64,000 nt of DNA from an uncultured Candidatus Saccharibacteria bacterium. Lineage in GTDB: Bacteria > Patescibacteriota > Saccharimonadia > Saccharimonadales > Saccharimonadaceae. Position 1 is the first letter of the stretch. Each line of letters opens with the position of its first letter. Under the pieces are notes generated by a model. The model had not been told where the DNA came from and made no database searches. It worked only from the letters and a program-made list of their open reading frames with translations. The position numbers and the translations under genes were made by a program. Below, piece after piece: positions 2 to 26,222 of this stretch. The DNA is taken from contig CAZVTQ010000003.1 in NCBI GenBank assembly GCA_964630185.1, forward strand, positions 109,175-173,174, given 5' to 3'.

Positions 2-790
2 AAGAGGGCAGAGTTAAAGTCTGATAGGTTAAAAAAACAACAGCGCGATCGGCGCAAACGTGCCTATACGATAGTAGCTAGCGGTATTTTTATTGTAATC
101 ATCGGTGCTTGGTACCTTGTAAGTCAATATACATTAGGCATAGGAACACTTACATTTCAGCCAGAAACCAGCAGAACGCCTCGTACGGATCTGTATAAGC
201 AAGCTATTTCCGACTATATTGCTGCTCGGCCTGCGGAAAGATTTCAGTTTGTGCTTAATCAAGACAGGCTTACTCAAGCTGTTTCTACACAGTTACCAGA
301 AGTAAGGAAGATCAAGAAAGACGGAGCTCAGTCAAACCAAGTTGATTTTGAAATTGAACTGCGTAAGCCTATAGCTAGTTGGAAAACTGGAGCTGGGCAA
401 TCATTTGTTGATGAAGAAGGTGTTAGCTTTGCTCATAACTACTTTACAGACCCAAAGGTGGTCATAATAGATAACAGTGGCGCTGAGGCAGCTCAAAAAG
501 GTACCAAAGCAGTTGTTTCCGAGCGATTTCTACGCTTCTTAGGTAGGCTAGTATCACTGACTAATGCATCGGGACTAGGTGAAGTAAAAGAGGCTTCACT
601 ACCTAAGGCAACAGCACGTGAAATCGATATTAAACTAGAAGGACGCCCATACTTTATAAAGACACATATAGATCGTGACCCAGCTGCAACTGTTGAGGAT
701 ATAAAGAGGGTAGTGAACTATATTGAGCAAAAGAATATAACCCCAAGCTATATAGACGTACGTGTTACAGGCAGGGCATTTTATAAATAA
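2..790 (+). CDS. FtsQ/DivIB-like membrane-anchored protein, 5'-truncated by the window edge
   Basis: The frame is open from nt 2, upstream of the tracked start at 251. It encodes a basic stretch, one TM helix (IVASGIFIVIIGAWYLV), then an FtsQ/POTRA-like pattern (LRKPIASW...FVDEEGVSF). The stop is at 788-790. Confidence 0.45.
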   Translation, partial: KRAELKSDRLKKQQRDRRKRAYTIVASGIFIVIIGAWYLVSQYTLGIGTLTFQPETSRTPRTDLYKQAISDYIAARPAERFQFVLNQDRLTQAVSTQLPEVRKIKKDGAQSNQVDFEIELRKPIASWKTGAGQSFVDEEGVSFAHNYFTDPKVVIIDNSGAEAAQKGTKAVVSERFLRFLGRLVSLTNASGLGEVKEASLPKATAREIDIKLEGRPYFIKTHIDRDPAATVEDIKRVVNYIEQKNITPSYIDVRVTGRAFYK

Positions 791-1465
791 AATTTTTTAG
801 GATAAGAAGGACTACTCGCTTTACTCTTCCCTATGTTCTATTTTTGTTCTATATTCAAATAGTATATACCTTTAAAGTGTAAAAACTATATTAAAATGAT
901 TGTTCAATAAAAAAGCAAATTTTATAAATAGACAGGGCAGAGGGGATAGAGGTAAAATATGTTTTAGCAAATGAAAAGCGTGAAAAAGCAAATCCTAAGT
1001 ATCGTGAAAAGTATATAAAAACACTAACTGTGGAAAAAGCAAGTGCAGCTATAGCGTAGTGTCGGGATAGTGCTACGCCGAGAGAAGTGGTTCGTTGGGA
1101 TGCGCAGTATGTGGCGGTAGCGTACGGCATTAACTGAGTGAAACCATAGCAATAAAGCCCTAGTACTACTCCCTATAGGTGATAGTGTAGTAAATAGTAT
1201 TATATGTATAACGTCGTAAAAGATATATTGTGCGACATTATGTATATATAGATAAGTTGTATTGTTACTCAACTTACTTATGCTTTTAACAGTAGTTTTT
1301 GTGCTAATACCCTCATATGTATATGCTCAGTACTCTCTTTTCTCATGCCCGCTCTTATATCTGGTATTTTGCGTTTTTGTAATAATTTATAATTTTTGCC
1401 ATTAACTACATTTTTTTTAATTTTAATTATTATTTAGCTACACAATAATGTAACAGGAATATAGC

Positions 1466-4137: not shown

Positions 4138-5202
4138 CTAAGCTTTCTTTGCTGGAGTTTCGTTTAGTCCGTAAGTTGCACGAGCAACACGTTTGAACTG
4201 AGGTTTTCCTTGTAGATTTAGTAAAATAGTAGTTTCTTTAACTTGACGTTTCTTGAGTACTTTACGAACGATGTCGTCACGGTGAAGAGGTCCTTCTTTT
4301 CGCAAAATGTCGCTGATGATGTCTGCAACTGTACCAGATGAGTAACCCCATTCGCTAAGTGCGTAGATACCACGGCCAATTAGTACGAAACGGCTGTCTT
4401 TAATAAGCTCGTTGTGTATTGCTTGTTGAGTAACGTCACGTCGTTTGAAGTCGCTAGCCTTGATAGCTTCAGCAACTTTGCTAAAGTGCATTGGCTTGCC
4501 GTTTTCTGCAAGGATTGCGTAAATCTTGTCACGAATGTTCTTTGGGTTAACAAGTGGGTTCTTTACAAGTCCCCATTTGTCTTTAAGGTTTGCTACGTGC
4601 TTGCTTGAGCGAGCCATTGCTTTAACGTTCGATGGGTGCTCAAAGCCATTTACCTGAGCGTGAAGCTCTTCGATAGTAGCTGGTTGACCCTTAAGGTCTT
4701 TGATAGCTTTGTGTACTGTGTCGATGTTTTCTTTGATCTTCTTCTCATCGTGGTGTTCTTTTAGACCAACTGAGTGGTAGTAGTCGTCATTTTCATCAAC
4801 TACAGCGAGGTTTGGTGCCAAAGTTGAAACAAAAGCAACATGTGCGTGGTCTTTTGCATCTGCGTCCGGGTTAATTTTTTCACTGAGGTCTTTTACTCTA
4901 GCTACTCCGCCCATCTCAGAGAGGTGCTTAATAAATTCTTTTTCTAGACGAGCAACATCTGCTTGTCCGTCTTCAGCAGCAATTTTAAGGCGTATAAGAA
5001 TAGCTTTTTCAAGTTGACGAACACGTTCTCGGGTAATGCCAAGCATTTCACCAATTTGTTCAAGAGTCTCTTTGCGGTCGTACAAACCAAAGCGACGAGC
5101 AATAATCTCACGTTCACGTTCACGCTCGATATTTTGCAAAATATTATCAACAGCCACCTTGATGTCTAAGGTTGAAGTACTTGCCTCGGCTGTATCGCTC
5201 AT
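4138..5202 (-). CDS. Sigma-70 region-4-like HTH protein with C-terminal HARE-HTH-like modules
   Basis: ETLEQIGEMLGITRERVRQLEKAILIRLK is a classic sigma region 4.2 HTH. The C-terminal segments (HFSKVAEAIKA...NELIKDSRFVLIGRGIYALSEWGY and a second copy) resemble the HARE-HTH of the RNAP delta subunit. Confidence 0.6.
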   Translation of the reverse strand: MSDTAEASTSTLDIKVAVDNILQNIEREREREIIARRFGLYDRKETLEQIGEMLGITRERVRQLEKAILIRLKIAAEDGQADVARLEKEFIKHLSEMGGVARVKDLSEKINPDADAKDHAHVAFVSTLAPNLAVVDENDDYYHSVGLKEHHDEKKIKENIDTVHKAIKDLKGQPATIEELHAQVNGFEHPSNVKAMARSSKHVANLKDKWGLVKNPLVNPKNIRDKIYAILAENGKPMHFSKVAEAIKASDFKRRDVTQQAIHNELIKDSRFVLIGRGIYALSEWGYSSGTVADIISDILRKEGPLHRDDIVRKVLKKRQVKETTILLNLQGKPQFKRVARATYGLNETPAKKA

Positions 5203-13311: not shown

Positions 13312-14241
13312 CTATAGTGTAGGCGGAGTAAGTGGAGTCTCTGTTGACGCTGTGTCTTCAGATGCTGGTGCAGGAGGTGGAACTGGAGCACTAGGTTCAG
13401 GTACTACTGGCGCAGGAGGTGTTGTAGCCGCAGGTTCGTCTGCGGGAGGTGGCGTTGGTACCGCTGCTGCAGCATCGGCTACAGGAGTTGGTGGTACTGG
13501 TGCATCCATTGAAACAGATCCGGTTGAGTCCATTGGAGGAACGGCAGACGATGCGCCGTCAGGTACATTTTCAACATCTTGGATTGATGATTTAAACTCA
13601 TTGTCGATCAACTCGCCAACATCAACATTACTTACTCGAGGGTTATCTTTCAAAGGCTGTATAACTCGATCGCCTAAGCCGCTAGGTCGTGCGCCTGTAA
13701 ATGGTGCAGTAGGTTGAGGGATGGTGGTTGAAGAAGCAACCTCTGATACAGGCTGATCTGGTGAAGGCGCTGCTGGTGGTGTTGGTGGAATTGCACCGGC
13801 TACTGCTGCTGCAGGATTTGGAGCTGCCGCCGGAACTGCTCCGGGTGCTGCTGGCGCAGGACTTGCTCCAGGTTTGTCAGCAAGAACTTGATGTACTGCT
13901 TTTACAACATCTTCAATACCAACTTGAGATTTCACTAGGTACATATCGGCGCCTAGTTGTTCACCACGCTTGCGTTGTTCGTCACTAGAAAGCGCGGTCA
14001 TCATGATAACTTTGATGTCTTTTGTTTCAGTTGTAGAGCGCAAAATGTCCAGCATGTCGAAACCGCTGATTTTTGGCATCATAACATCGCTTACTATTAG
14101 ATCGGGTCGGTCTTTTATAGCCATAGCTAGGGCTTCTTCACCGTCTCCAGCAGAAACAATGTCATAACCCTCGGCGAGTAGTCTTACTCCGTATATTTCG
14201 CGTAGGCTCTTGTCATCTTCGACAAGCATAATTTTTGTCAT
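13312..14241 (-). CDS. Response regulator: receiver domain plus a Pro/Ala-rich low-complexity tail of about 190 aa
   Basis: Receiver hallmarks VEDD, SDVMMP, MMTALS and KS. No recognisable output domain. The tail is dominated by P, A, V and T. Confidence 0.85.
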   Translation of the reverse strand: MTKIMLVEDDKSLREIYGVRLLAEGYDIVSAGDGEEALAMAIKDRPDLIVSDVMMPKISGFDMLDILRSTTETKDIKVIMMTALSSDEQRKRGEQLGADMYLVKSQVGIEDVVKAVHQVLADKPGASPAPAAPGAVPAAAPNPAAAVAGAIPPTPPAAPSPDQPVSEVASSTTIPQPTAPFTGARPSGLGDRVIQPLKDNPRVSNVDVGELIDNEFKSSIQDVENVPDGASSAVPPMDSTGSVSMDAPVPPTPVADAAAAVPTPPPADEPAATTPPAPVVPEPSAPVPPPAPASEDTASTETPLTPPTL

Positions 14242-14292
14242 ATTACCCCCATTTTAAATGTTACTTTGCAAAAATGCTAGTGCTTTTTTTAT

Positions 14293-16011
14293 TTACATCA
14301 GGTCGGCCGGTGTCGTCTCTATTTTTCGGGTTGCTTCTTCATGTGATAAGCGTACAAATTCTACAAAAAAGGTGCTTCCATCGCCTTGTCGACTCTCGAG
14401 CCATAACCGTCCACCCATTGTCTCTACTAGTCTACGACACAAATACAGACCAAGTCCAGTACCACCTATATCGCGAGTATCGGTATTGTCGACACGATAG
14501 AATTTTTGGAACAAATGCACTTGGTCTTCTTTTGGAATACCAATACCTGTGTCGTGTACTGATAACACTGCTTTGGTTGCGTCTCCAGTAATATCTACAG
14601 TGACATTACCTGTCTTGGTATATTTTATAGCGTTTTCAATAAGGTTGCTTGCAACTTCACGCAGGTGGTCATTATCGACATCAACATAATACACAGGGTT
14701 AAGTGGCCGACCAGCACCACTGGCCTGTACGGTAGGTTTAAATAACAAAACTAGCCCTTTTTCCTTAGCTCTGGTGTCAAACGTACGTACGATCTCACCA
14801 ACAAAACTTACAAGATCGACAACCTTCGGAGTGTTTTTGAGGCGTCCATCCTCTACCCTAGAAATATCAAGTAGATCTTGAAAAAGTCGGCCTAGGTGTT
14901 GGATGCTCTCGTTTGCTTTCAATAAATAGTCACGAGCTTTTGCGTCTATCGTAGCTGTGGCTGGGTTTAAGGCGAGACCAAGATAGCCTTCAATTGTTGC
15001 CACTGGTGTACGCATTTCGTGGCTGGCGGTCGAGATGAATTCGGCTTGTTGTCGCTCCTCTTCCTTTTCGTGGGTAATATCGCGAAATACAATGATAGCT
15101 CCAGCTCCGATCTGCCCGACTGGCGATGCTGAAACAGATATAAGCAACTTTTTGCCAGAGCTGGTTTCTAGCTGTAGGTCATTTGTTGTTATGGGATTGT
15201 TGGTCCTTAGAACTTGCTGAATCGGGTCGGTATTTTCATTTACTACTTCACCGGTTTTGCTGAGTAGCTTTATGACCGATTTATAGTCGAGCTTCAAAGC
15301 ATCCTGCTTTCCCCAGCCGATGATTGACTGAGCTGCTGGGTTAATAAGTTGAATTGTACCCTGTGAGTCCACAGCTACTACTCCGTCGTTGATAGCGTTA
15401 ATTACTATTTCAGATTTGTTGGCAACTTGGCTTAGCTCGCGTACAAGTTCGCTGTAAGCCTTGTCTTTGGCGCGGTCAGGGTGTGATTTGTGATGCCATA
15501 TGAGCCAGCTTGCGAGTATCGGTACCTCATAGGCAAGTAAATAGACTAAAAGCTGTGATTGAATATCAACACTTTTAAATAGAAATATTTCTAGCAGTAG
15601 ATATAGATTAACGGCAATCATGAAGCCGACGAGCATCCTCCAGCCAAATAAGCCAGCGAAAACACTGGCAAGTATCCAAAGAGCGATAAATGGCGAAGTT
15701 ACGGGGTTTGTCAGCACTAGTAGTAGAGCTACGTTTACACAAAGTCCAATGTATACGGCTAAGGTTATTTGCTCTAGTTTTTCTCGTGGCGCAAAAAGAT
15801 ACGCTCCAAAACTTGTTATGGCGACTATAACTGAGGTAATTGCAACTGGCAAGGGCACTATAAAGTTGGCTGTAACAACACTATCGCTCGTAAAATAGCC
15901 AAAAGCAAAAAAGGCAATCAAAAAGAGTGACACAAAGAAAGATATCTCGCATATGCGGCGATACCAAAAAGCTGAAATGGTAAATGTCGACTCGTCCGAG
16001 TTTATCCCCAC
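14293..16011 (-). CDS. Membrane sensor histidine kinase with PAS domain
   Basis: Multi-TM N-terminus, a PAS-like segment, H-box STASHEMRTPV, N box NLIENAIKYT, G boxes DTGIGI and GGTGLGLYL. The start codon is uncertain: the GTG is immediately preceded by GGAGG. Confidence 0.9.
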   Translation of the reverse strand: MGINSDESTFTISAFWYRRICEISFFVSLFLIAFFAFGYFTSDSVVTANFIVPLPVAITSVIVAITSFGAYLFAPREKLEQITLAVYIGLCVNVALLLVLTNPVTSPFIALWILASVFAGLFGWRMLVGFMIAVNLYLLLEIFLFKSVDIQSQLLVYLLAYEVPILASWLIWHHKSHPDRAKDKAYSELVRELSQVANKSEIVINAINDGVVAVDSQGTIQLINPAAQSIIGWGKQDALKLDYKSVIKLLSKTGEVVNENTDPIQQVLRTNNPITTNDLQLETSSGKKLLISVSASPVGQIGAGAIIVFRDITHEKEEERQQAEFISTASHEMRTPVATIEGYLGLALNPATATIDAKARDYLLKANESIQHLGRLFQDLLDISRVEDGRLKNTPKVVDLVSFVGEIVRTFDTRAKEKGLVLLFKPTVQASGAGRPLNPVYYVDVDNDHLREVASNLIENAIKYTKTGNVTVDITGDATKAVLSVHDTGIGIPKEDQVHLFQKFYRVDNTDTRDIGGTGLGLYLCRRLVETMGGRLWLESRQGDGSTFFVEFVRLSHEEATRKIETTPADLM

Positions 16012-16082: not shown

Positions 16083-16129
16083 AAAAAAATGGGGCGACCT
16101 CCTGTTCGAAATGAACAAGAGATCGCCCC
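16083..16129 (-). terminator. Intrinsic terminator downstream of TerD
   Basis: On the minus strand: GGGGCGATCTCTTGTTCA-TTTCG-AACAGGAGGTCGCCCC followed by ATTTTTTT. Confidence 0.7.
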
Positions 16130-16182
16130 GTGGGCTGATTACTACGCTGTAAAAGCGATGTAATCGGTTCAGTCAACCGTGA

Positions 16183-16767
16183 CTAGGCGGCTACGCCAAC
16201 ACCGTGGTCGGCGCAGAGGCCTTCCAGTCCGTTGTTGTACCCGTCGCCGACAGCCTTGAACTTCCACTCGCCGTCCTTGCGGTACAGCTTGCCGAAAATG
16301 ACGGCTGTTTCGAGTGAGTAGTCATCGCTGAGGTCGAAGCGAGCCAGCTCGGCTCCGGACTGATCGCAGACGCGCATGAACGCGTTCTGGACACCGCCGA
16401 AGTTCTGGTTGCGCGACGCGGCGTCGTAGATGGTGACAGCGACAATGATCTCCACGATCGACAGCGGCAAATTTGCCAGGTCGATGTTGATTGATTCGTC
16501 GTCGCCGTCGCCGGCACCGGTGCGGTTGTCGCCTGTGTGATGGATAGTGCCGTCGGGGCTGTCGAAGTTGTCGTAAAAGACAAACCAGCCCTCACCCGGC
16601 ACCTTGCCGGAGGCGTCGACCGCAAATACCGAAGCATCGAGGTCGAATTCGGCACCAGCTGTGCCTCCCTTTTGGTCCCAGCCGAGACCGACTGTGACAT
16701 TGGAGAGCTGGCCGCCAGCTTCCTTTGTGAGGCTGACGTTGCCTCCCTTTTGCAGTGAAACGGGCAT
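16183..16767 (-). CDS. terD: TerD-family stress protein
   Basis: VSLQKGGNVSLTK...VGLGWD...FDLDASVF...GDNRTGAGDGDDESINIDL...YNNGLEGL is the canonical TerD/TerZ/TerE Ca-binding fold signature. Start set at the ATG at 16767 (AAAGGAAAC upstream). Confidence 0.9.
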   Translation of the reverse strand: MPVSLQKGGNVSLTKEAGGQLSNVTVGLGWDQKGGTAGAEFDLDASVFAVDASGKVPGEGWFVFYDNFDSPDGTIHHTGDNRTGAGDGDDESINIDLANLPLSIVEIIVAVTIYDAASRNQNFGGVQNAFMRVCDQSGAELARFDLSDDYSLETAVIFGKLYRKDGEWKFKAVGDGYNNGLEGLCADHGVGVAA

Positions 16768-16810
16768 GAGCACGTTTCCTTTCTGGAGTGTGTACTCCGA
16801 TTGTTGGATA

Positions 16811-17962
16811 TTACTCTTTCCCTCGTTGTCCGAGAAGATCGAGAATATGGGTTAGACGTCCGGTTCCCTTCATTTCCAGCTGAAGCTTTCCATTGCCGTC
16901 GTTAGACGGATAGAAAGCAATCAATTGACCTGGTTTGAAGGTTCGCTCGCCTATTTGAACTGGGTAGCGCACTAGAAATTGAGACTGCCATGGAATGTTT
17001 CCATATCCACGACCATGTCGCCTTCTAATGCGATCTGTGCGAAGTGCCTCTTCCAGTTGGTTTGACAACTGAACTGCGGCTGCCGGATTGGCAACCGAGG
17101 TCCAAAAGTCAGTCAACTGTTGAGTGCTCTCATTGCTCTTTTGCTTGATCTCCTTTTGCAAGGGATCTGTAAGTAGCCACGGGTCAAAACCAAGCTCGAG
17201 TTCGTTCAAGGTCGGCTGACGAGTCAGCGCTTCCTTGTAGACGTTCCCAAGTAGGTATGGTGCCCACAGCTTCTGGCCAATCGCAAACACAAGTTCTGCA
17301 ATTGGTACTGCCTTTTTGAGTACTTGCACCGAGTTATTCGTGGTTGTTGTCGCTTCCCAGCTTTTGCTGAGTTGCTTAAACACCACGAGCTGCGGTTGCA
17401 ACTGTTTGACGACCTCTTGGTGTAAAGCTTGCATACGAGACGGAATCCCGTAGTATTCGATCACCGCAAGGTCATCTTGTACCTGCTCGATGACGCAGCG
17501 ACATGCGCACCACACACCCGCAAAGTCTTCCAGCCTTAGTTTCAAGTCCGGAAATTCTGCTAGTTGCGCGTTGAGCGGTCGTGTGCCCATGCTTGACTCG
17601 GCAGTTGCTTGCACAGAGTGCAGCATTGCTTCGTCGGCATAGTCACACAGTGCATCACCTTGTTCATATGCCTTTTTGGGCAATGTCTCTTCCGTTTGAT
17701 AGGATTCGACAACACCGTCTAGAAAGCATGTACTCATCTGCCACAACATTGCTGCGAGCCAGTGGCTGTGCAGAAGTGTCAGGGCTGATATCGGCAGTTC
17801 CCAGATAGCCGAGTTGGCAGTGCTCAAGCCTTGTATCTGCGCATCAAATGCGTCGACAGCTTGAGTTTGCCCCTCGACAGTTCGTGTGAGAAGTTCGACA
17901 ACCTGTGGGTCACCGATTGTGCTAGGCCCTAAACGGCCGTACACCTGGGCGATCCCAGACAT
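16811..17962 (-). CDS. Hypothetical protein (383 aa) co-oriented with and immediately upstream of TerD
   Basis: Long clean ORF with AAAAGGAG upstream of the ATG. No family recognised. 43-nt gap to terD. Confidence 0.6.
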   Translation of the reverse strand: MSGIAQVYGRLGPSTIGDPQVVELLTRTVEGQTQAVDAFDAQIQGLSTANSAIWELPISALTLLHSHWLAAMLWQMSTCFLDGVVESYQTEETLPKKAYEQGDALCDYADEAMLHSVQATAESSMGTRPLNAQLAEFPDLKLRLEDFAGVWCACRCVIEQVQDDLAVIEYYGIPSRMQALHQEVVKQLQPQLVVFKQLSKSWEATTTTNNSVQVLKKAVPIAELVFAIGQKLWAPYLLGNVYKEALTRQPTLNELELGFDPWLLTDPLQKEIKQKSNESTQQLTDFWTSVANPAAAVQLSNQLEEALRTDRIRRRHGRGYGNIPWQSQFLVRYPVQIGERTFKPGQLIAFYPSNDGNGKLQLEMKGTGRLTHILDLLGQRGKE

Positions 17963-18047
17963 GTCTTACTCCTTTTGGAAGTGGGTTGACTGAATTGTTA
18001 AGTTGCCCCTCAAGGTTTTGAAAATCTCCACCGAGAAGCTGTATAAA

Positions 18048-18076
18048 ATTGTATCATATAAAAATATACTATGCAA
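18048..18076 (-). promoter_or_regulatory. Candidate promoter TTGCAT-N17-TACAAT for the 383-aa-ORF/terD operon
   Basis: The -35 is at 18076..18071 and the -10 at 18053..18048, in an AT-rich divergent intergenic region. Confidence 0.4.
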
Positions 18077-18101
18077 TAACTTTATTAAAGATACAAAGGC
18101 A

Positions 18102-18130
18102 TTGACTAGTATTGTTTTTTCAATTACTAT
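18102..18130 (+). promoter_or_regulatory. Candidate promoter TTGACT-N17-TACTAT for the vWA gene
   Basis: The -35 is at 18102-18107 and the -10 at 18125-18130. Confidence 0.4.
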
Positions 18131-18202
18131 AGTATGGTTGACAGAAAGTGTCAAGGTAGCTTACAAAAGGCAATCAATCTAGTCACCCAGGAGGTGTCTA
18201 AT

Positions 18203-18997
18203 ATGGGCGTTTCGCTCAACAAAGTACAGGACCAAGCTCCGCACATGGTCGATCTGGTCAAAAAAGGAGGTGTGGTTCTCGAAAAGAAGGGCATCAACCC
18301 AGACCTGTACAAGGCAGCGGTGATCGCAACTCTCGATCACTCAGGCTCTGCAGCCGGGCTGTACGACAGGGGGCTGATGCAGGAGGTTGCTGACATTGCG
18401 TTCGCAGCCGGACTGTTGTTCGACGATGACGGCTCAGTGCCCGTATCGTTGTTCGACAATACCATCAATCCTCTCGGTGAGATGGATCTGGCGAACTGTC
18501 GCAGCTTCGTTTCGCAGCACACTCGTTACCGCTACGGTGGTACGAGTTACAAGACTGCACTCGAGTGGATCGTTGACGAGGCCGGTTTCGGCGGAATCAA
18601 CCTCGGTGGTTCTAGCGGTGGAGGAGGTTTCTTCCGCAGCAAGAGCAGTGGTGGCAACCTCGAAGTCAAGGCAACTGCCGAATACCCGGTCTACGCCATT
18701 TTCGTCACGGACGGCGAACCTCAAGATGGTGCGGCCGCAGCGGAGTACCTTCGCCTGATGAGTCAGCTGCCGATTTTCGTGCAGTTCATCGGCGTCGGTC
18801 CTCACTCGTTCTCTTTCCTGAAGGGGCTCGATGACATGGATGGTCGCCTGATCGACAACGCGAACTTCTTCGATGCGAAGGACGCCGGCAACGATCAGGG
18901 CAAGATGCTCGAGCTGATGCTTGGGGAATTCCCGGACTACTACACGCTCGCGCGTCAGCAGGGACTGATCAGCCAGGGAGCCGCAGTCGTCAGCTAA
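18203..18997 (+). CDS. vWA domain protein of the TerF-C-terminal (vWA-TerF-like) type
   Basis: Start set at the ATG at 18203 (CAGGAGG upstream). MIDAS-like LDHSGSA, TDGEP, and a Gly-rich linker. Located in a Ter cluster. Confidence 0.75.
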   Translation: MGVSLNKVQDQAPHMVDLVKKGGVVLEKKGINPDLYKAAVIATLDHSGSAAGLYDRGLMQEVADIAFAAGLLFDDDGSVPVSLFDNTINPLGEMDLANCRSFVSQHTRYRYGGTSYKTALEWIVDEAGFGGINLGGSSGGGGFFRSKSSGGNLEVKATAEYPVYAIFVTDGEPQDGAAAAEYLRLMSQLPIFVQFIGVGPHSFSFLKGLDDMDGRLIDNANFFDAKDAGNDQGKMLELMLGEFPDYYTLARQQGLISQGAAVVS

Positions 18998-19003
18998 ACA
19001 ATT

Positions 19004-19042
19004 GGGACTGTGCGGATGGATTTTTATCCTCCGTGCAGTCCC
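19004..19042 (+). terminator. Hairpin after the vWA gene
   Basis: GGGACTGTGCGGATGGA-TTTTT-ATCCTCCGTGCAGTCCC. No clear T-run follows. Confidence 0.4.
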
Positions 19043-19215
19043 ATATATAATTTCTAGGTATTTTTATTCGTCACTAAGTGGCGCTTTTTTATGTTTTCTA
19101 AACTTTCGCCGTTTACGGCTCATCAGTATAGCTTAAAATCTATAGAGTTTAGCGGGAGTGCGTGCTGGATTGCACGCACTCCCTAAGGGTAAAGCACCCC
19201 TGGGCTGTGGTTTGA

Positions 19216-20538
19216 CTAGGCGTTCAGCGCCGGCGTTGCCGGAACGGACGTGGTGATCTGCGGCGGCGTTGTTGCTGCCTCGATGACCTGGTCGATGACC
19301 ACTTCGTCGATCTTCCTGTGAGTGTTCGCCAGCTGCTGCTGGGCAGCCACCATGGCCGCATCCAGTTCGTCTCGCTTGCGTTCGCCTTCCTGGTACTCGC
19401 GCAGAACACCGTCTGCAGCCTGTGCCAACGAGTCGGCAACGACTGAGAGTGTTTCGGGTGTGAACGTCGGAGCCTGGATGGCGCGTTCGATGGCGGGCAT
19501 CGTCTCCGCACCAGCCTTGAAGAACTCCTGCGTCCACTGGTTGGCAGTTGCCTGAACCGCCTCACTCATCTTGCCGGCGTCCTGGGTTTGCACCATCATG
19601 CGCCACTGCACCAGCAATGACTTCATGGTGGGAACAGTGACGTTGACCATCTCACCGAGCTTGGCCGACATGCCGAGGTCCAGATTGCGCATCATGCGCG
19701 TCTGAGGAGCAGTCGCCCATGCGATGAACAGTCGTCCCTTGTACTCGCCGATCTTGGCCTTCATGCTCGTGATCAGGTCGGCACGCTTTTGGCGCTCTTC
19801 CTGACCGCGATCACCGAGGTTGGCGTCGCCGACCTCGATGGAGTCCGCGTCCTTGGCAGCTACATCGACGATCATCTCCATGACGGCGATGACGTAGATG
19901 AGCTTGGCGATCTCCTTCTCGTTTTCCGTGTAGATCGTGTCGAGGAAAGCGACGTTGCGGGACATGTCCGCCTGGCTTCCTGCCAGGTCGGCCGAGATCC
20001 TGTCGAGCTGCTTCTCGATGTCGGTGAAATCCGACCGAAGCACCTCGATGAAGGTACGGCCACGACGGAAGAATCCCTTGACCTTGTTGGCACCGTTGGT
20101 CCACTTTTCGTAGTCCTTCCGAACCTTGGGGTCGCTCATGTCGTACTTCTTCTTGATGCCGAGCATCGTGACGTTGAGCTCTTTCATGAGCCCGTTGAGC
20201 TCAGGGATCTTGGTGGGCTCCACCTCATTGAGGAGGCGCTCGACAAGAACATTGACGTCCTTGAGGGCATCTGTGCCGTAGTACATGATGACCTGAGTGT
20301 CGGTCAGCATCTCCCTGTAGATCTTCTCTGCCTCTGCCTCTGCCTGCCTCTTGGTTTCACCCTCGAGCAGGTTCTTGCAGACGAGACCCTGGCGGCCTTC
20401 CGATGTCTTGGCAATGACTGCCAGACTTGTCTCTGCGGGCCCCTCTACAGGTACCGCAGTCGCCTCAAGCACAGATGACTGAGCAGGAGGAGTTGCAGTT
20501 GCTACCGGAGCAGCAATCTGAATGTTTGAGTCCGTCAT
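19216..20538 (-). CDS. telA: TelA/KlaA-family toxic-anion-resistance protein
   Basis: 440 aa, all-helical. The region YYGTDALKDVNVLVERLLNEV...LNGLMKELN and the overall length match TelA (YceH-like) proteins. A hairpin (GGGAGTGCGTGC/GCACGCACTCCC) follows at about 19152-19185. Confidence 0.8.
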   Translation of the reverse strand: MTDSNIQIAAPVATATPPAQSSVLEATAVPVEGPAETSLAVIAKTSEGRQGLVCKNLLEGETKRQAEAEAEKIYREMLTDTQVIMYYGTDALKDVNVLVERLLNEVEPTKIPELNGLMKELNVTMLGIKKKYDMSDPKVRKDYEKWTNGANKVKGFFRRGRTFIEVLRSDFTDIEKQLDRISADLAGSQADMSRNVAFLDTIYTENEKEIAKLIYVIAVMEMIVDVAAKDADSIEVGDANLGDRGQEERQKRADLITSMKAKIGEYKGRLFIAWATAPQTRMMRNLDLGMSAKLGEMVNVTVPTMKSLLVQWRMMVQTQDAGKMSEAVQATANQWTQEFFKAGAETMPAIERAIQAPTFTPETLSVVADSLAQAADGVLREYQEGERKRDELDAAMVAAQQQLANTHRKIDEVVIDQVIEAATTPPQITTSVPATPALNA

Positions 20539-20568
20539 GTGCGGACCTCCTTCTTCGTGTTGTCTGAT

Positions 20569-21015
20569 TTACAGATGTTGCGCAGACAGAATCTGCGTGT
20601 CTACTTTGAAGTTGATCAGGTCGGCCTTTTTAGACGCCCCTGCTCCACCTCTGAACAACTGTCGTGCAAAACCTTGCACGGACTGCTGCCCTCGGTCCAG
20701 AAATTCCCTCGCGTCTTCATAGGCGTCCGGGTTGTTCTGGATTGTCACGTATTCATCGATGACACGCAAAACTGTTTCCAGTTGTTTTTGAAACGTTGCT
20801 ACTTCGGCGCCTCCAGGAGGACCATTGGAGCCACGTTTTGACAAACAACTTTCACCGTCTTGCGCTATTCGCGTCAGCACTACTTTGATTCGAGGATTGT
20901 TGACACGAAGTCGTGTCATACCCACCTGCTCGAGAAGATCCCGAACATGATCGATGGAGTATTTTTCCTCCCCAACTTCCGGTAGATCAGGTGTTTGCCT
21001 GTCAAACCATGCCAC
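20569..21015 (-). CDS. Hypothetical protein (148 aa) immediately upstream of telA
   Basis: Same strand as telA with a 30-nt gap. No TM segment. No family recognised. Confidence 0.5.
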   Translation of the reverse strand: MAWFDRQTPDLPEVGEEKYSIDHVRDLLEQVGMTRLRVNNPRIKVVLTRIAQDGESCLSKRGSNGPPGGAEVATFQKQLETVLRVIDEYVTIQNNPDAYEDAREFLDRGQQSVQGFARQLFRGGAGASKKADLINFKVDTQILSAQHL

Positions 21016-21259
21016 TTGAGCCTCCCTTCAACCTTGGGCTTTGTAAGTGTATGTTAATTTGCTGGTTGAACTTAGCTTATAATAACATTTTGAAATAGAT
21101 GAGTCAATACTTTGACTACTGTAAAATATGTTAATTTTATTGTTGTCTAACACTTGTAATATATGTAGTTTTATGATATTATAAACAAACTGTACAGATA
21201 AGTTCTGTACGCACCTTAACAGTGTGAGTAAACTTCTACCCTCCTAACAAAGGACATGA

Positions 21260-22309
21260 ATGAAGCATTACAGGATCGATATTGCAATTACAGCGATTGT
21301 TTTCGCTGCGATTGCGGTTTTCGTTGAACCGGCCGCAATGATCCCTCTGGGGATTTTGGCTGTGCTGGAGGTCTCGTTGTCCTTTGACAACGCGGTCGTC
21401 AACGCCAGCGTGCTCAAGCACATGAGTGAATGGTGGCAGAAGATCTTCATGACGGTCGGCATCTTGATTGCTGTTGCTGGAATGAGGCTTTTGTTTCCTA
21501 TCCTCATCGTTGTTGTCACGGCACACCTCAGTTTTTCGGAGGTTGTAAGCCTGGCGCTCAACGATGTCGACACCTATGCGGCTCGCTTGCATGATGCACA
21601 TGCAGAAATCGCCATGCTCGGCGGCATTTTCCTGATGATGGTCTTTTTGAACTTCATGTTTGAAGATCGAGAGACTAAATGGCTGGGACCCCTCGAAAGG
21701 GTTTTGGCTCGGGCTGGCCGCTTCGACACGCTTTCAGCCGCGATCGCATTGATTGTGATCTTGGTTATCAGTGCGTTGGTGCCGAAGGCTGAACAGGTGC
21801 CTGTGCTTGTCACGGGTGTCATCAGTCTTGCGATGTATCTGGTTCTCGACATCTTCGCCTCTGCTTTCGAGCAAGAGGATGAAGACCTCGACGAAGGATC
21901 GTCGCTTGTACCTCGAATTGGCATGGCAGCATTTGCGTTGTTCATGTATCTCGAGTTCCAGGATGCGTCGTTCAGTTTTGACGGCGTTACAGGGGCGTTC
22001 GCTATCACCAACAACGTTGTGTTGATTGCGGCTGGTCTCGGTATCGGAGCGCTTTTTGTGCGGTCTATGACCGTTCATTTGCTCCGTACCAATAAGCTCA
22101 CTGAGTTCAAGTATCTTGAGCACGGTGCGCACTGGGCGATTGGCACGCTTTCGGCCTGTCTGCTTGCCGGCGTCTTCATCAATATCTCTGAGTACATCAC
22201 GGGTCTCATCGGTGTTTCTTTCATCGGTGCGGCTATTTGGCACTCAAAGAGGGAGACAAAGCAGGAAGAAGCTCAGACTCTCGCTACCTCACAGGTAGCG
22301 ACCGAGTAG
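21260..22309 (+). CDS. TerC-superfamily integral membrane protein (DUF475-like)
   Basis: About 9 TM segments. Signature LEVSLSFDNAVVNASVL and a second repeat FSFDGVTGAFAITNN. A hairpin (CTTCGGGTG...CACCCGAAG) follows. Confidence 0.75.
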   Translation: MKHYRIDIAITAIVFAAIAVFVEPAAMIPLGILAVLEVSLSFDNAVVNASVLKHMSEWWQKIFMTVGILIAVAGMRLLFPILIVVVTAHLSFSEVVSLALNDVDTYAARLHDAHAEIAMLGGIFLMMVFLNFMFEDRETKWLGPLERVLARAGRFDTLSAAIALIVILVISALVPKAEQVPVLVTGVISLAMYLVLDIFASAFEQEDEDLDEGSSLVPRIGMAAFALFMYLEFQDASFSFDGVTGAFAITNNVVLIAAGLGIGALFVRSMTVHLLRTNKLTEFKYLEHGAHWAIGTLSACLLAGVFINISEYITGLIGVSFIGAAIWHSKRETKQEEAQTLATSQVATE

Positions 22310-22423
22310 TAGCTCCGCTGCGTTAAACCTTCGGGTGGCTTTGCTTAGGCAGAGTCACCCGAAGTTACGCTTTACTCACACTGTTAATTTATTTCACTGA
22401 ACTATAACCAATAAGAAAACTAT

Positions 22424-23269
22424 ATGAATATTCCAAGGCTTTCGACAATTGAAATTACTCCCCTCTCTGACGACGAGTTTATTCATGCTGATGGAAGCAC
22501 TTTTGATGTTATTGAGTATAGTTTGATGAAATATGGTGACTCATACACTGCATGGCAGTATGGACAAGAGGTAGCTGAAGCTGCAATCGAACAGACCAGC
22601 GAACAACTTTCTCAGCCAGATGTGTTGATAACTGTTCCAGCATGTGTATATTCGCCAAAACCAGCTTTTGCCATTGCTCGAGCTATGGCTGTAGGTGTTA
22701 ATGAATGGCGAATTGAGCAAGGACTTCAACCTGCAAAAATGCTACGAATGTACAGCGAGGCTATGGGCGACCCAAACTATGCTCAGTCAAACTTAGAAGA
22801 TCGCCAAAAAGATAGATTTGGACAAGTGAAACAGCGACATATTCCACCAAGTCTTGTGAAAGACGCCGTTATATTTGCAGTCGATGACTGTGTCATAACA
22901 GGTTCAACTGAGCAGTCTCAATACGAAATACTAGCACCACATGGTCCAGCTGAATTTATTTCTGCGCCGGCAATTGTGGTTGATCCTGAACAGGCCAAGC
23001 TTTTCCCGGGCATTGAGCATGTTATGAATACCGCAGCAAACCCTAGTTTAGAAACTGTTGCTGAGCTTATCGACAAAGATACATTCATGCTTAATTCACG
23101 TGTTCTAAAACTGATTGTTGGTCACGAAGACAAAGAAGAACTAGAAACTTTTCTAGATGACTGTTCCTGGTCGCTTATCAGTGAAATGTATGAAGCATGC
23201 ACCAACTCAACACTAGAGTTCGTGGAAGAATATGCCGAGTCAATAGTTTTATTGCAAAACAGGCTGTAA
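22424..23269 (+). CDS. Ter-cluster-type phosphoribosyltransferase-fold protein (paralog 1)
   Basis: PRPP-loop-like AVIFAVDDCVITGSTEQ. N-terminal Y-KYGD motif (YSLMKYGDS) shared with the next two ORFs. Confidence 0.65.
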   Translation: MNIPRLSTIEITPLSDDEFIHADGSTFDVIEYSLMKYGDSYTAWQYGQEVAEAAIEQTSEQLSQPDVLITVPACVYSPKPAFAIARAMAVGVNEWRIEQGLQPAKMLRMYSEAMGDPNYAQSNLEDRQKDRFGQVKQRHIPPSLVKDAVIFAVDDCVITGSTEQSQYEILAPHGPAEFISAPAIVVDPEQAKLFPGIEHVMNTAANPSLETVAELIDKDTFMLNSRVLKLIVGHEDKEELETFLDDCSWSLISEMYEACTNSTLEFVEEYAESIVLLQNRL

Positions 23270-24133
23270 CTAAGCAGCAATAGCTGCTGCTGTCGTCCGC
23301 TTGTTGTACGCATCTCTGAAGGCTGCAACACCCTCTTTGTAAGCATCCATAGATCCAAGCTCATCGCCCTCTATATACTCTCGAATAGTTTCGAGTGTTT
23401 CTTCATTTATGCTCTGACAAAATGCTTGTATTTCGCTTTCGCTACTCGAAACTAACATTTTACATATACGTGCGTTTGGCACGAAATTGCCGGTGTCATG
23501 TGAAAGCTGTGCTACAGATGACAATGAGCGTATTGCACAATGATTAATCGCAGATTCTACGCGTGGGTCGGTGCTGTTTTCTTCAACGGTCAGTATGTAG
23601 GCATATGTAAGAGGTATTTCAGATAAGCCTGAACGGATAAATAGCCTATGCAAAAGGCGCTCATGTGAGCCAGTTACCAGTATGTCATCGAGCGCTATGA
23701 TGCCGTCTACTGACATGTCAAAATCGTAAGGCATTTGCAGCCCGTTGCGCTCCATGATGTTCTCACGCTCCTCAACACTCATGAGTGCGTAGTCGCCTTG
23801 AGCTAGGTTTTTACGATCTATTTTGAAAGGTTCAAAATTTGCTTGTGGCACAGTTTCTTGCAGTCTTTGTACGAACGAGCCTAACATCGAGTTTGATGCA
23901 GGTGGTGCAACTTTATAGGCAGACGAAGTTACTGCATAGTTCCCGTCCTCTACGATGCTTTGTTTCGCTATTTTGTCGGCTAATGCTTCGCCATATCTCG
24001 AAGCAACATCGCCGTCGCCATATTTAAACCGACTATACTCAACTGGACATACGTCACCGTCTAGTGTTGTTGGCTGTCCATGGGCAGTACCCTGTACTTG
24101 GTCTAGCCACACTCTTTTCACTTCACCAGTCAT
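23270..24133 (-). CDS. Ter-cluster-type phosphoribosyltransferase-fold protein (paralog 2)
   Basis: GIIALDDILVTGSHER and YSRFKYGDGD. Confidence 0.65.
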   Translation of the reverse strand: MTGEVKRVWLDQVQGTAHGQPTTLDGDVCPVEYSRFKYGDGDVASRYGEALADKIAKQSIVEDGNYAVTSSAYKVAPPASNSMLGSFVQRLQETVPQANFEPFKIDRKNLAQGDYALMSVEERENIMERNGLQMPYDFDMSVDGIIALDDILVTGSHERLLHRLFIRSGLSEIPLTYAYILTVEENSTDPRVESAINHCAIRSLSSVAQLSHDTGNFVPNARICKMLVSSSESEIQAFCQSINEETLETIREYIEGDELGSMDAYKEGVAAFRDAYNKRTTAAAIAA

Positions 24134-24135
24134 TA

Positions 24136-25008
24136 TTAATTACCTCGCTTTAGCAATACGTGCTGAGCTACCTGTTGATAGCCTGTTTTATACTTTTGTA
24201 AAAAATCCGGTCCGGTAGCCACTGCTCCACGTGATACAGCCTCTATCTGTTCGTTCGACATTACATTCATTAACTGATCTAAATCTTCACTTGAAGCACT
24301 CAAAATCATTTTCATAGTACGTATATTTAAGTCGAAACCATCGCTACTTGCAATAAGTTCAATCAAATCACCTGCTTTTGAAATTGCAGTTTCGTTAATA
24401 TCTGACTCTACATGTGGTGAGTTATAAGCTTGGCTGCTGTCAAAAACGGCTACGTAGCCTAGTAAAACAGATGTTGGTGTTTGTTTTTCTGCACGCAGAA
24501 CTTCCAAAATACGTCTTTCGGCGCCGCCGGATATACGAATATCATCAAGCACTACAACTGGACGATCGTCGACTCGTTTACCTCTAAGACTGAAGTCTAT
24601 TGCCGCAAGTTCTGCTTCTCGGTCTTCCACTGAAGCTTTTGAATAGTCGGTATTAGTGACATTTTCCTTGTGTACCTTGAATATTTCTACTGGTTCTAAG
24701 TCAGCTTGAACCCTTATGCGGTTAACAAGGTCAACGCAGTACTGAGAAAGATATCCGCAAGCTGGCTGTACGACTTTGTATGCAACTAAAAATGCTGGCG
24801 GCGTCTCATCTTCGAAAATGTGAGGAGCTTCTTGGTGCGCGGCTAGTGCTATCTCTTCGGCAAAGTGTTTTGTATCTTTACGACTACCGTATTTCATACG
24901 GCTGTATGCTGCTGCATCAAATTCTTTACCGTTTGCATCGACTATGTCCCCGTCAGAGGCATATTCAAGATGATGAACAGCTACAGTTTGCTTCATAGTA
25001 TCGATCAT
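24136..25008 (-). CDS. Ter-cluster-type phosphoribosyltransferase-fold protein (paralog 3)
   Basis: PVVVLDDIRISGGAER and YSRMKYGSRKD. Confidence 0.65.
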   Translation of the reverse strand: MIDTMKQTVAVHHLEYASDGDIVDANGKEFDAAAYSRMKYGSRKDTKHFAEEIALAAHQEAPHIFEDETPPAFLVAYKVVQPACGYLSQYCVDLVNRIRVQADLEPVEIFKVHKENVTNTDYSKASVEDREAELAAIDFSLRGKRVDDRPVVVLDDIRISGGAERRILEVLRAEKQTPTSVLLGYVAVFDSSQAYNSPHVESDINETAISKAGDLIELIASSDGFDLNIRTMKMILSASSEDLDQLMNVMSNEQIEAVSRGAVATGPDFLQKYKTGYQQVAQHVLLKRGN

Positions 25009-25715
25009 TACAACAAACCTTTCTCGTGCGCTTCGGCTATAGTTTTAGCTGTTACTATGTCAGTTTGTACAGGCTCGGAGGCTATATGTACTGCTTTCAT
25101 TCCTACCGCGTTCGCCCCGTGGTAATCAGCAGTTAAGTTGTCGCCAACGTGGGTAATTTCGCTGAACTCTCTATCTAAAAGTGTTGCCATATGTCCAAAT
25201 ATTTTAGGGTGTGGCTTTGCTGCTCCAACTTCATTTGAAAATACTTGTAGGTTTGTTTTATCTAAGATACCAATTGATTTCAAAGCTTGGCGCATGTATT
25301 CACCATTTATAAGGCCGGTGTTGCTTGTGAGAACAATGTCACGTTCAGCGGCAATATTGTCTAGAGTTTCAATAAGGTCTGGCTCTTGATGTTCTGGCAA
25401 GTAGTCCAAAAATAGTCCCTGTATACCCTCGGCGAGCTCGGCAATAGCTTTCTGCCCTAACTTTACTCCTAGTGCATCGCAGAGGAATTGCAATCTCTCG
25501 TTTGGTCCAAATTGCAAACCTAGTTCATCGGCTGTATCGTCACAGAGCTTATCGACTTTGTGAAGCGCTTCACCGGTTTCAGTTACATCGGTACCAAAAC
25601 GATTCGCAACAAAACTATTACGCATTGATTTGTGCGAAGGATTTCTAGCTATCAACGTCTTCCAGACATCGAGGCTGACCGCTTGTTTTGTTACTTCTTT
25701 ACTCATATAAAACAA
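25008..25715 (-). CDS. HAD-superfamily hydrolase with atypical motif I
   Basis: Motif II LTSNTG; motif IV HVGDNLTADYHGANAVGM. Motif I reads SLDVWKT, so the second Asp of DxDxT is replaced by Trp. The stop overlaps the start of PRTase paralog 3. Confidence 0.65.
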   Translation of the reverse strand: MFYMSKEVTKQAVSLDVWKTLIARNPSHKSMRNSFVANRFGTDVTETGEALHKVDKLCDDTADELGLQFGPNERLQFLCDALGVKLGQKAIAELAEGIQGLFLDYLPEHQEPDLIETLDNIAAERDIVLTSNTGLINGEYMRQALKSIGILDKTNLQVFSNEVGAAKPHPKIFGHMATLLDREFSEITHVGDNLTADYHGANAVGMKAVHIASEPVQTDIVTAKTIAEAHEKGLL

Positions 25716-25772
25716 TAATTCTTAATTATTTGAACTATAATACCATAAATATGAAGTAAAATCAATAACTAC

Positions 25773-26222
25773 CTAAAGAGTTGACGAGTGTAATTCTTGT
25801 TCTAGTTCAAGAAGTTCTTCGTCGTCTGGTTCAAGAGTTTCATCTTCGCTCACTATTTCATCGACAGGCTCCATTTCGTCCTCGTTTGGAAAAGGAAAAA
25901 CAATATCAAATAGCCCCATAGCGTGCGCCCTGTGCATGATATCAATCTCGTCTATTTCTTCATGTCTCCGTGTAGGTCCTGTACCCCATAACATTCGTAC
26001 AGATTTTACAAAATCGAGTGGTTCAGTTTTGTGACGGGCAATATCAAGAAGTATTCCCTCTCGGCGTAAACCATGTGAAAAAGCCTTAGCCACTAGGTAT
26101 CGAGCAGCTACAGCACTCGCCCCTTCGAGGCTTAGTTCTACGTCGGGTTTCTCAGGATCAACAAAAAATACTTCTGCAAGCTCTATCGGTTCGTTTGTTT
26201 TTTGCTCAATTACCTCAGTCAT
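25773..26222 (-). CDS. Hypothetical protein with a very acidic C-terminus (149 aa), first gene of the HAD-PRTase transcription unit
   Basis: Clean ORF. The C-terminus is DEMEPVDEIVSEDETLEPDDEELLELEQE. No family recognised. Confidence 0.5.
   Translation of the reverse strand: MTEVIEQKTNEPIELAEVFFVDPEKPDVELSLEGASAVAARYLVAKAFSHGLRREGILLDIARHKTEPLDFVKSVRMLWGTGPTRRHEEIDEIDIMHRAHAMGLFDIVFPFPNEDEMEPVDEIVSEDETLEPDDEELLELEQELHSSTL

Follow-up and report, generated by a model that had tools for sequence, protein, structure and literature searches.

A trimmed Ter-type gene cluster with two unannotated conserved proteins and a probable hammerhead ribozyme in a Saccharibacterium

Eleven consecutive open reading frames (ORFs) at 16.2–26.2 kb form a Ter-type gene cluster in a 64-kb window (the whole stretch of DNA that was analyzed) of a Candidatus Saccharibacteria contig. 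ORF translations were scanned against Pfam with its gathering scores, NCBIfam, and PADLOC-DB v2.0.0, and a PDB sequence search, Foldseek, and Rfam were used in addition. Loci compared with the window carry L-numbers; the relatives are L008, L009, L005, L033/L034 (a 0.96-Mb contig), the distant L003, and L032, a phage-like contig. Eight of the eleven ORFs match named Pfam families above gathering scores, and the assignments in an earlier note on this DNA (TerD, a TerF-like vWA protein, TelA, TerC/DUF475, three phosphoribosyltransferases, and a HAD enzyme) all hold. The other three, named here by length in amino acids as unk383, unk148, and unk149, had no match in Pfam or NCBIfam even at permissive thresholds; the earlier note had left them unidentified, and two of them prove to be conserved components that had not been described. 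The genes are as follows:

16183–16767, minus strand: TerD, 194 aa (Pfam PF02342, 4.4e-73)
16811–17962, minus strand: unk383, 383 aa, unannotated family without a Pfam, NCBIfam, PADLOC, or PDB match
18203–18997, plus strand: stand-alone TerF-type vWA protein, 264 aa (Pfam PF10138, 1.2e-37, 130 bits)
19216–20538, minus strand: TelA, 440 aa (Pfam PF05816, 1.8e-25, 90 bits)
20569–21015, minus strand: unk148, 148 aa, soluble, conserved TelA partner encoded directly upstream of TelA
21260–22309, plus strand: DUF475/TerC-superfamily integral membrane protein, 349 aa (PF04332, 5.5e-107, 358 bits; PF03741, 8.5e-16, 58.6 bits)
22424–23269, plus strand: PRTase_3 paralogue a (Pfam), not in L008 or L009, nearest counterpart kept in L033
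23270–24133, minus strand: PRTase_3 paralogue b (Pfam)
24136–25008, minus strand: PRTase_3 paralogue c (Pfam)
25008–25706, minus strand: HAD-IA family phosphatase (Pfam and NCBIfam)
25773–26222, minus strand: unk149, 149 aa, acidic, no family in Pfam and NCBIfam scans

The cluster divides into a core module of six genes at 16.2–22.3 kb (DUF475, unk148, TelA, the stand-alone vWA protein, unk383, and one TerD) and a biosynthetic module at 22.4–25.7 kb (the three PRTase_3 paralogues and the HAD phosphatase). Counted from strand switches, the genes form five same-strand blocks, not the four transcription units claimed before. Membership of unk149 in the system is doubtful because it is present in L009 and not in L008. 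The rest of the window is housekeeping in content (topoisomerase I, DprA, ribonucleotide reductase, F-ATPase, glycosyltransferases, and a sortase). Its Der GTPase shares a 90% cluster with proteins that bear the name Candidatus Saccharibacteria, and the closest syntenic genomes are metagenome-assembled genomes labeled Candidatus Saccharibacteria. These observations agree with the reduced genome type proposed in the earlier note and support a Saccharibacterial origin within the candidate phyla radiation (CPR).

TerD matches solved TerD structures (PDB 3ibz, 1.4e-66; 2kxt, 8e-64), retains the Ca2+-site motifs GDNRTG and GDGDDE, and is the only TerD-domain protein in the window. An attempt to name its donor lineage failed, as beyond the Saccharibacterial clade (65–87% identity) the matches lie on a flat plateau of 57–63% made up mostly of Kitasatospora and Streptomyces, with Proteobacteria present too. 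The vWA protein keeps the metal-ion-dependent adhesion site (MIDAS) as DHSGS (DxSxS) and has no N-terminal TerD domain. The membrane protein passes both Pfam cut-offs, with DUF475 the better match, and scores 412 bits against NCBIfam NF010613; across the cluster, the NCBIfam scan returned only DUF475 “hypothetical protein” equivalogs and generic HAD models, with no Ter or defense match. A perfect 17-nt inverted repeat surrounds the DUF475 ORF, with one arm at 21216–21232 in the 5′ untranslated region (UTR) and the other at 22371–22387 in the DUF475-PRTase spacer, and L009 has a different perfect inverted repeat of 12 nt at the equivalent flanks; such repeats may reflect long-range RNA pairing or a DNA-level feature. 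TelA of this type is widespread in Saccharibacteria. Its AlphaFold2 (AF2) model (pLDDT 63) is a long helical hairpin, for which the Foldseek matches to ClyA-family toxins, BAR proteins, and chemoreceptors were set aside as weak matches between generic long helical bundles, none of them significant.

In the biosynthetic module, the three phosphoribosyltransferases (PRTases) match PRTase_3 at 1e-22 to 1e-26 (80–91 bits). They are just 23–24% identical to one another, and all three keep the DDxxxTG/SG loop that binds phosphoribosyl pyrophosphate (PRPP). Copy number varies among relatives, with b and c in L008 and L009, b-like and a-like copies in L033, and a, b, and c in the window.

In the published model of Ter-dependent neighborhoods, PRTases and a HAD enzyme make a nucleoside-like signal, TerD acts as the ligand binder, and a TerC-type membrane protein, TelA, and a TerF-type vWA protein complete the set (PMC7824862). 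The window shares with these neighborhoods (Anantharaman, Iyer, and Aravind, 2012; summarized in Iyer et al., 2021, PMC7824862) TerD, a TerC-superfamily protein, TelA, a TerF-type vWA protein, and PRTase_3 plus HAD genes in a conserved cluster; the gene set thus fits the Ter-type neighborhood as summarized there, and its linkage is kept across divergent Saccharibacteria. It differs in having a single TerD, a vWA protein unfused to TerD, and DUF475 instead of classical TerC, and it adds unk383 and unk148, a hammerhead motif after TelA, and a CPR epibiont as host. It also lacks several published components: ATPgrasp_Ter, C-C_Bond_Lyase, and PRTase_1/PRTase_2/TRSP were found neither among the scanned ORFs nor among the called genes at 6.8–64 kb, and TerB (PF05099) matched no scanned ORF, the three unknown ORFs included at E up to 5. 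A C-C_Bond_Lyase gene (2e-66) does stand beside DUF475 in the distant relative L003. With these absences, a single TerD, and only two PRTases in close relatives, the description of the cluster as complete-looking was overstated.

The terZABCDEF operon of the IncHI2 plasmid R478 and E. coli O157 encodes TerB, TerC proper, and five TerD-domain paralogues (Z, A, D, E, and F), and is not known to include TelA. TerD-domain and TerC-superfamily proteins are common to that operon and the window, but the latter carries a single TerD, lacks TerB, and has a membrane protein that matches DUF475 best; to call the two the same gene set, as had been done, does not hold. The yceCDEF(meeF)GH and xpaC-yaaN genes of Bacillus subtilis combine TerD paralogues with a TerC-family and a TelA-like protein in a stress-induced operon, with a small partner directly upstream of TelA, and XpaC is the TelA neighbor in Firmicutes. 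The window resembles B. subtilis in TerD, the TerC-family protein, the TelA-like protein, and the small gene directly upstream of TelA, but its partner, unk148, has no transmembrane helices and is weakly tied to XpaC. No YceG_bac homologue was detected. PMC10550928 gives the name of the yceCDE-meeF operon. Tellurite resistance, phage inhibition, and colicin resistance are shown solely for enterobacterial ter operons, for whose phenotypes terC, terD, and terZ are needed (PMC12054061).

The two conserved unannotated proteins extend this comparison. The AF2 model of unk383 (pLDDT 75), a protein with no sequence match in the PDB, has a confident N-terminal six-helix bundle and a small, less confident C-terminal beta domain with the motifs DPWxLTDP, FW, and PWxSQxxVR; Foldseek matches of the model (G protein-coupled receptors, ferritins; E above 0.09) were rejected as noise. 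A word-indexed search found only ten relatives among 5.8 billion proteins, and an exhaustive profile search of 1.84 billion representatives found 153 at E ≤ 1e-3 and 39, mostly full-length, at E ≤ 1e-30; the family is small, with about 39 50% clusters of full-length members. In every full-length locus examined, the gene is linked to Ter genes. The C-terminal module (~100 residues) is present in other proteins as well, singly or as repeats, and no Pfam domain was found in them. Relatives of it (22–34% identity) are present in Actinomycetota (Nonomuraea, Actinoallomurus, and Gaiellaceae; L011–L027) outside a ter context, and at one Nonomuraea locus (L025) the unk383-like gene adjoins genes for ArsR, a cation diffusion facilitator (CDF) exporter, MerR, and TetR.

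The gene for unk148 precedes TelA in all loci. In more distant Saccharibacteria the unk148 domain is the cytoplasmic C-terminal part of proteins of ~330–356 aa that start with a hydrophobic, signal-peptide-like segment followed by a hydrophobic stretch. The unk148 profile aligns with a paralogue in L008 that has two transmembrane (TM) segments (hhalign 88%, E 3e-6), and this paralogue in turn matches PF10112 (XpaC/Halogen_Hydrol) at 20.9 bits (E 3.9e-4), below the 29.8 cut-off, with unk148 itself lacking a Pfam match. These alignments weakly suggest that unk148 is XpaC-like, which we regard as a lead and not as a demonstration. Two distant Saccharibacterial loci (L028 and L029) carry a unit of three genes, for an unk148-like protein with a membrane anchor, for TelA, and for an unannotated ~316–320-aa protein, with TerD, vWA, and DUF475 absent; such a TelA unit may predate the full Ter cluster and be more widely distributed across the phylum.

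The Ter genes are linked in related genomes, not scattered. In L008 and L009 the order is HAD-PRTc-PRTb, DUF475, unk148-TelA, vWA, and unk383-TerD, followed by a PAS kinase, a receiver protein, and a pseudouridine synthase. The same arrangement recurs in L005 and L033/L034 and partly in L003, and the core genes are linked in L032 too. Gene order is kept among relatives whose proteins are 36–70% identical; for unk383, identity to the window falls from 90% in L008 to 67% in L009, 45% in L005, and 36% in L003. On the left, all cellular relatives keep synteny with the window, the kinase and receiver genes included. On the other side, synteny between the window and L008 breaks at the end of HAD, because the gene content beyond it differs: the window continues with unk149, unk130, unk192, and a tRNA-Glu gene (27.8 kb), and L008 has at 702–2954 (minus strand) the XpaC-like paralogue of unk148 with two TM segments, along with a lipoprotein in which a solute-binding domain is fused to a vWA domain.

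Sequence divergence sets the cluster apart from its surroundings. Between the window and L008, housekeeping proteins are 84–95% identical (nonsynonymous divergence, dN, 0.03–0.10), against 73% for TerD, 69% for vWA, 60% for TelA, 57% for unk148, 71% for DUF475, 59–63% for the PRTases, and 51% for HAD (dN 0.18–0.42 for Ter proteins), so that the Ter proteins diverge 5–10 times faster than the flanking housekeeping genes. All cluster genes are intact and under purifying selection where dN/dS is measurable (0.15–0.22 for TerD, vWA, TelA, and DUF475, the genes with an estimable synonymous divergence, dS). Compared pairwise among the window, L008, and L009, the Ter proteins stand about equally far apart (51–77% identity), except for unk383, which is 90% identical between the window and L008 and has the lowest dS in the region. 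The unk383 gene and the intergenic regions (80–94% DNA identity) form conserved islands among divergent genes, a pattern that suggests recombinational swapping of alleles. Identities of TerD, TelA, and unk383 are also shuffled between contigs, one of which has 93% for unk383, 89% for TelA, and 74% for TerD.

Codon usage is likewise uneven. The TerD, vWA, TelA, and DUF475 genes have the four highest values of GC content at third codon positions (GC3) in the window, 0.62–0.76 vs. ~0.42, with 92% of Lys codons being AAG (background 32%), ATA absent (0% vs. 32%), and NCG codons enriched, whereas the PRTase and HAD genes use codons like the rest of the genome. The bias recurs in L008, L009, L033, and the distant Saccharimonadaceae genome L028. 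Ordinary expression-linked codon bias was considered and rejected: in L028 the ribosomal protein genes L7/L12 and L10 have a GC3 of 0.27–0.35, against 0.86 for TelA, which argues against such a bias, and the NCG enrichment points the same way. Repeated transfer or swapping of alleles, to which GC-biased gene conversion may have contributed, would explain both the divergence and the codon usage.

All six core families, unk383 and unk148 included, are also encoded on the phage-like contig IMGVR_UViG_3300050821_009413 (L032/L035; 145 kb, 59% GC), which differs from the window in its layout as one co-directional operon (DUF475-unk148-TelA-vWA-unk383-TerD) and in its proteins, which are ~37% identical. 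The operon is flanked by genes for a PRPP synthetase (phrog_619, 5.9e-73), SPFH, and PTH2 on one side and NAMPT (phrog_448, 3.5e-175) on the other, and its core is without PRTase_3, HAD, or kinase genes. The 21 kb read of the 145-kb contig showed no capsid, terminase, or other phage hallmark gene, and a viral scan with the single unk383 protein returned the same one contig only. Phage phi92 encodes within one region a hydrolase, a PRTase_3-like protein, and a phosphatase, then a TerC-like and then a TelA-like protein. The Ter modules of phages (jumbo phages, PMC7824862; phi92) thus have the TerC-like, TelA, and PRTase/HAD theme in common with the window, and the phage-like contig and phi92 accord with the idea in the literature that Ter is a conflict system employed by phages too, against superinfection (PMC7824862).

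These data bear on two alternative explanations. One holds that the core is a phage-derived superinfection-exclusion cassette that moves among Saccharibacteria and phages with its alleles recombining, and that the chromosomal copy serves mainly in mobile-element conflict. Its appeal lies in the core operon beside phage-type NAMPT and PRPP synthetase genes, the equidistance of Ter proteins between genomes whose housekeeping proteins are far closer, the shuffled identities, the anomalous GC-rich codons, and the end of synteny right after HAD with a tRNA-Glu gene nearby. We nevertheless consider it rather improbable, since none of the called genes in or beside the cluster encodes an integrase, a transposase, or a phage structural protein, the left flank is syntenic in all cellular relatives, and the viral evidence consists of one contig with ~37% identical proteins and no hallmark gene in the part read. 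The other explanation makes the PRTase and HAD genes ordinary nucleotide salvage of an auxotrophic epibiont, merely located beside an unrelated Ter-like stress operon, and we give it very little credence. The genome-like codon usage of these genes, their absence from the phage-like core, and the existence of Rhizobium plasmids with a HAD and PRTase pair alone would suit it, but all three proteins match PRTase_3 (in Pfam, “PRTase ComF-like”), a family that we take to be defined from Ter neighborhoods, and match the general Pribosyltran model weakly or not at all; moreover, the PRTase-HAD-DUF475 linkage is kept in L008, L009, and L033, and phi92 has PRTase, hydrolase, TerC-like, and TelA-like genes near one another.

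Regulatory elements lie in the spacers of the cluster, and a sensor pair adjoins it:

13312–15933, minus strand: PAS-HisKA-HATPase sensor kinase and receiver protein, adjoining the cluster in every cellular relative examined
16091–16129, minus strand: intrinsic terminator 3′ of TerD (17-bp stem and T run), parting the Ter unit from the sensor kinase gene
18102–18154, no strand assigned: divergent sigma70-like promoter pair in the unk383/vWA spacer (consensus scan)
18998–19215, minus strand: structured spacer between the convergent vWA and TelA genes, with a hairpin, a hammerhead, and a terminal hairpin on the TelA strand
19098–19152, minus strand: motif of a type III hammerhead ribozyme, 64 nt past the stop codon of TelA (Rfam RF00008, permissive scan)
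21079–21182, no strand assigned: divergent sigma70-like promoter pair in the unk148/DUF475 spacer (consensus scan)

The strong terminator explains why the earlier note had begun the cluster at 16083. The unk383/vWA promoter region is 92% identical in DNA to that of L008, and the vWA/TelA spacer (228 nt) is 94% identical across the window, L008, and L009, with flanking genes that are far more divergent. This spacer folds at −76.3 kcal/mol (z −7.3). On the TelA strand, a 12-bp GC hairpin (~19160–19189) directly precedes the hammerhead and a long terminal hairpin (~19003–19039) follows, and the minimum-free-energy fold reproduces the hammerhead three-way junction. The motif shares with type III hammerheads (RF00008) the catalytic core (CUGAUGAG...CGAAA), three stems (7, 5, and 4 bp), and a cleavage triplet, CUC, that is an NUH site; it matches the full-length model with an intact core at 46.0 bits (E 1.3e-7), but this is 2.5 bits below the gathering score of 48.5, and it differs in its setting in the 3′ UTR of a Ter gene. 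It stands at the same position in L009 (45.7 bits) and L008 (43.2 bits). We regard the motif in the 3′ UTR of TelA as a probable self-cleaving ribozyme and propose that it makes the 3′ ends of TelA mRNA, which would end just past the strong hairpin.

The pattern of hammerhead core plus stem II has 86 exact matches in metagenome contigs and 22 in viral contigs (L036–L143). Among these, 28 distinct matches parse as a type III design in which stems I and III vary freely and still pair, a count that is partly circular because pairing was the selection criterion. Several copies are on contigs of 0.6–1.2 Mb, a size consistent with CPR genomes, and in L062, L065, and L107 a Saccharibacteria-type unk148-TelA pair in the same orientation lies ~1.2 kb upstream of the motif. 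Among gut viral contigs of ~15 kb, many have a different arrangement upstream of the hammerhead core.

The PAS histidine kinase and the receiver protein may provide an input for the cluster. The response regulator conserved beside the kinase and the cluster (13312–14241, minus strand) joins its receiver domain to a Pro/Ala-rich low-complexity tail of ~190 aa, and because the tail is only Pro/Ala-rich, the protein is unlikely to be a classical transcription factor. Nearer the start of the window are an 870-aa protein (1466–4078, minus strand) with type IV secretion coupling-protein domains (TrwB/TraG-like) and a 354-aa protein (4138–5202, minus strand) with Sigma70_r4 and HARE-HTH domains, which may be parts of a Patescibacterial type IV secretion system or DNA-uptake machinery.

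Our favored reading, which we hold with moderate confidence, is that the locus is an intact, lineage-specific variant of a Ter-type membrane-stress/conflict system in a Saccharibacterium, built from two modules. In its favor are the family matches above Pfam thresholds, the intact motifs of TerD, the vWA protein, and the PRTases, the gene order kept among divergent relatives, purifying selection, the phage-like contig and phi92, promoters and terminators that bound the units, and the hammerhead data. Family identities, linkage, selection pattern, and the phage copy are thereby shown; from its gene families, and following the model of PMC7824862, one would expect the system to work as follows. 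The DUF475/TerC membrane protein would handle or sense divalent cations at the membrane, and TerD would read Ca2+ through its two conserved sites. The vWA protein with its MIDAS, the long coiled-coil TelA, unk148, and unk383 would assemble beneath the membrane and stabilize or reshape it under attack on the envelope, whether from phage, from membrane-active compounds of the actinobacterial host, or from metals or oxidants. In the biosynthetic module, the PRTases would add bases to PRPP and the HAD phosphatase would take off the phosphate, giving a nucleoside-like signal or cofactor. The PAS kinase and receiver would probably supply the stimulus, and the TelA transcript would probably be ended by the self-cleaving hammerhead, its 3′ end shielded by the strong hairpin. 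A role in envelope, phage, or host-derived stress, as the earlier note suggested, is reasonable on these sequence grounds.

Several results weigh against this reading. At E up to 0.01, none of the ten proteins from TerD through HAD matched PADLOC, to which the earlier note had looked for a check of the locus. With TerB, the Ter ATP-grasp, and the C-C lyase absent from the window, the predicted route to the metabolite is shorter than in the published model; the TelA and unk383 models have no significant fold match, which makes the sub-membrane scaffold an assumption; the receiver protein has no output domain recognized by Pfam; and the hammerhead falls short of its gathering score. Finally, a plain metal role is possible, because TerC-family proteins act in Mn export and in exoenzyme metalation, as shown in Bacillus (PMC10550928).

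The main rival explanation builds on this last point. The cluster would be a divalent-metal homeostasis or metalation system, in which DUF475/TerC exports Mn2+, Ca2+, or Zn2+ for secreted or surface enzymes and TerD and the vWA protein are accessories, with no link to phage or conflict. Beyond the Bacillus precedent, terC of Klebsiella pneumoniae affects Zn and Mn resistance (PMC12054061), the TerD Ca sites and the vWA MIDAS are intact, and the distant unk383 relative in Nonomuraea adjoins ArsR, CDF cation-efflux, and MerR genes. We judge this explanation unlikely, as it leaves unexplained the linked PRTase/HAD genes and TelA, the divergence 5–10 times faster than that of the flanks, and the six-gene core on a phage-like contig; in addition, the Rfam scan of the cluster region matched no yybP-ykoY Mn riboswitch or other metal-sensing RNA.

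In the reading of a Ter-type membrane-stress/conflict system, the locus is a known kind of system, trimmed in parts, with two unannotated conserved proteins and a probable ribozyme added, and it introduces no new principle. The fast divergence, odd codons, and phage-borne copy suggest that ~10 kb of a small epibiont genome is spent on a conflict or envelope-stress function. That such an investment is unexpected, as the earlier note put it, needs softening, since TelA of this type is found widely among Saccharibacteria and the cluster as a whole is passed down within a clade. A search of the available literature found no paper that connects Ter genes, TerD, or tellurite resistance with Saccharibacteria or CPR in a relevant way. 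More speculatively, and on balance doubtful, the six-gene core could be a distinct mobile Ter lineage of Saccharibacteria and at least one large phage, fast-diversifying (possibly by allele swapping at conserved intergenic anchors that include the hammerhead spacer) and serving phage or superinfection defense in CPR; if true, it would offer a minimal single-TerD model for how Ter systems function.

How Ter systems work has been a question since the 1990s, partly because the enterobacterial operons, with five TerD paralogues, are redundant. The cluster described here comes close to a minimal system: TerD, the vWA protein, TelA, and the membrane protein are each present once, the PRTase/HAD arm is short, and the genome offers few confounding factors. 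Its additions are the partners unk383 and unk148, both conserved and without annotation, and a transcript that may be processed by a ribozyme. Saccharibacteria are reportedly now genetically tractable, and the predictions made here would be testable if a cultivable strain carries the cluster. The value of the locus lies in a near-minimal Ter system, together with the side observations that accompany it.

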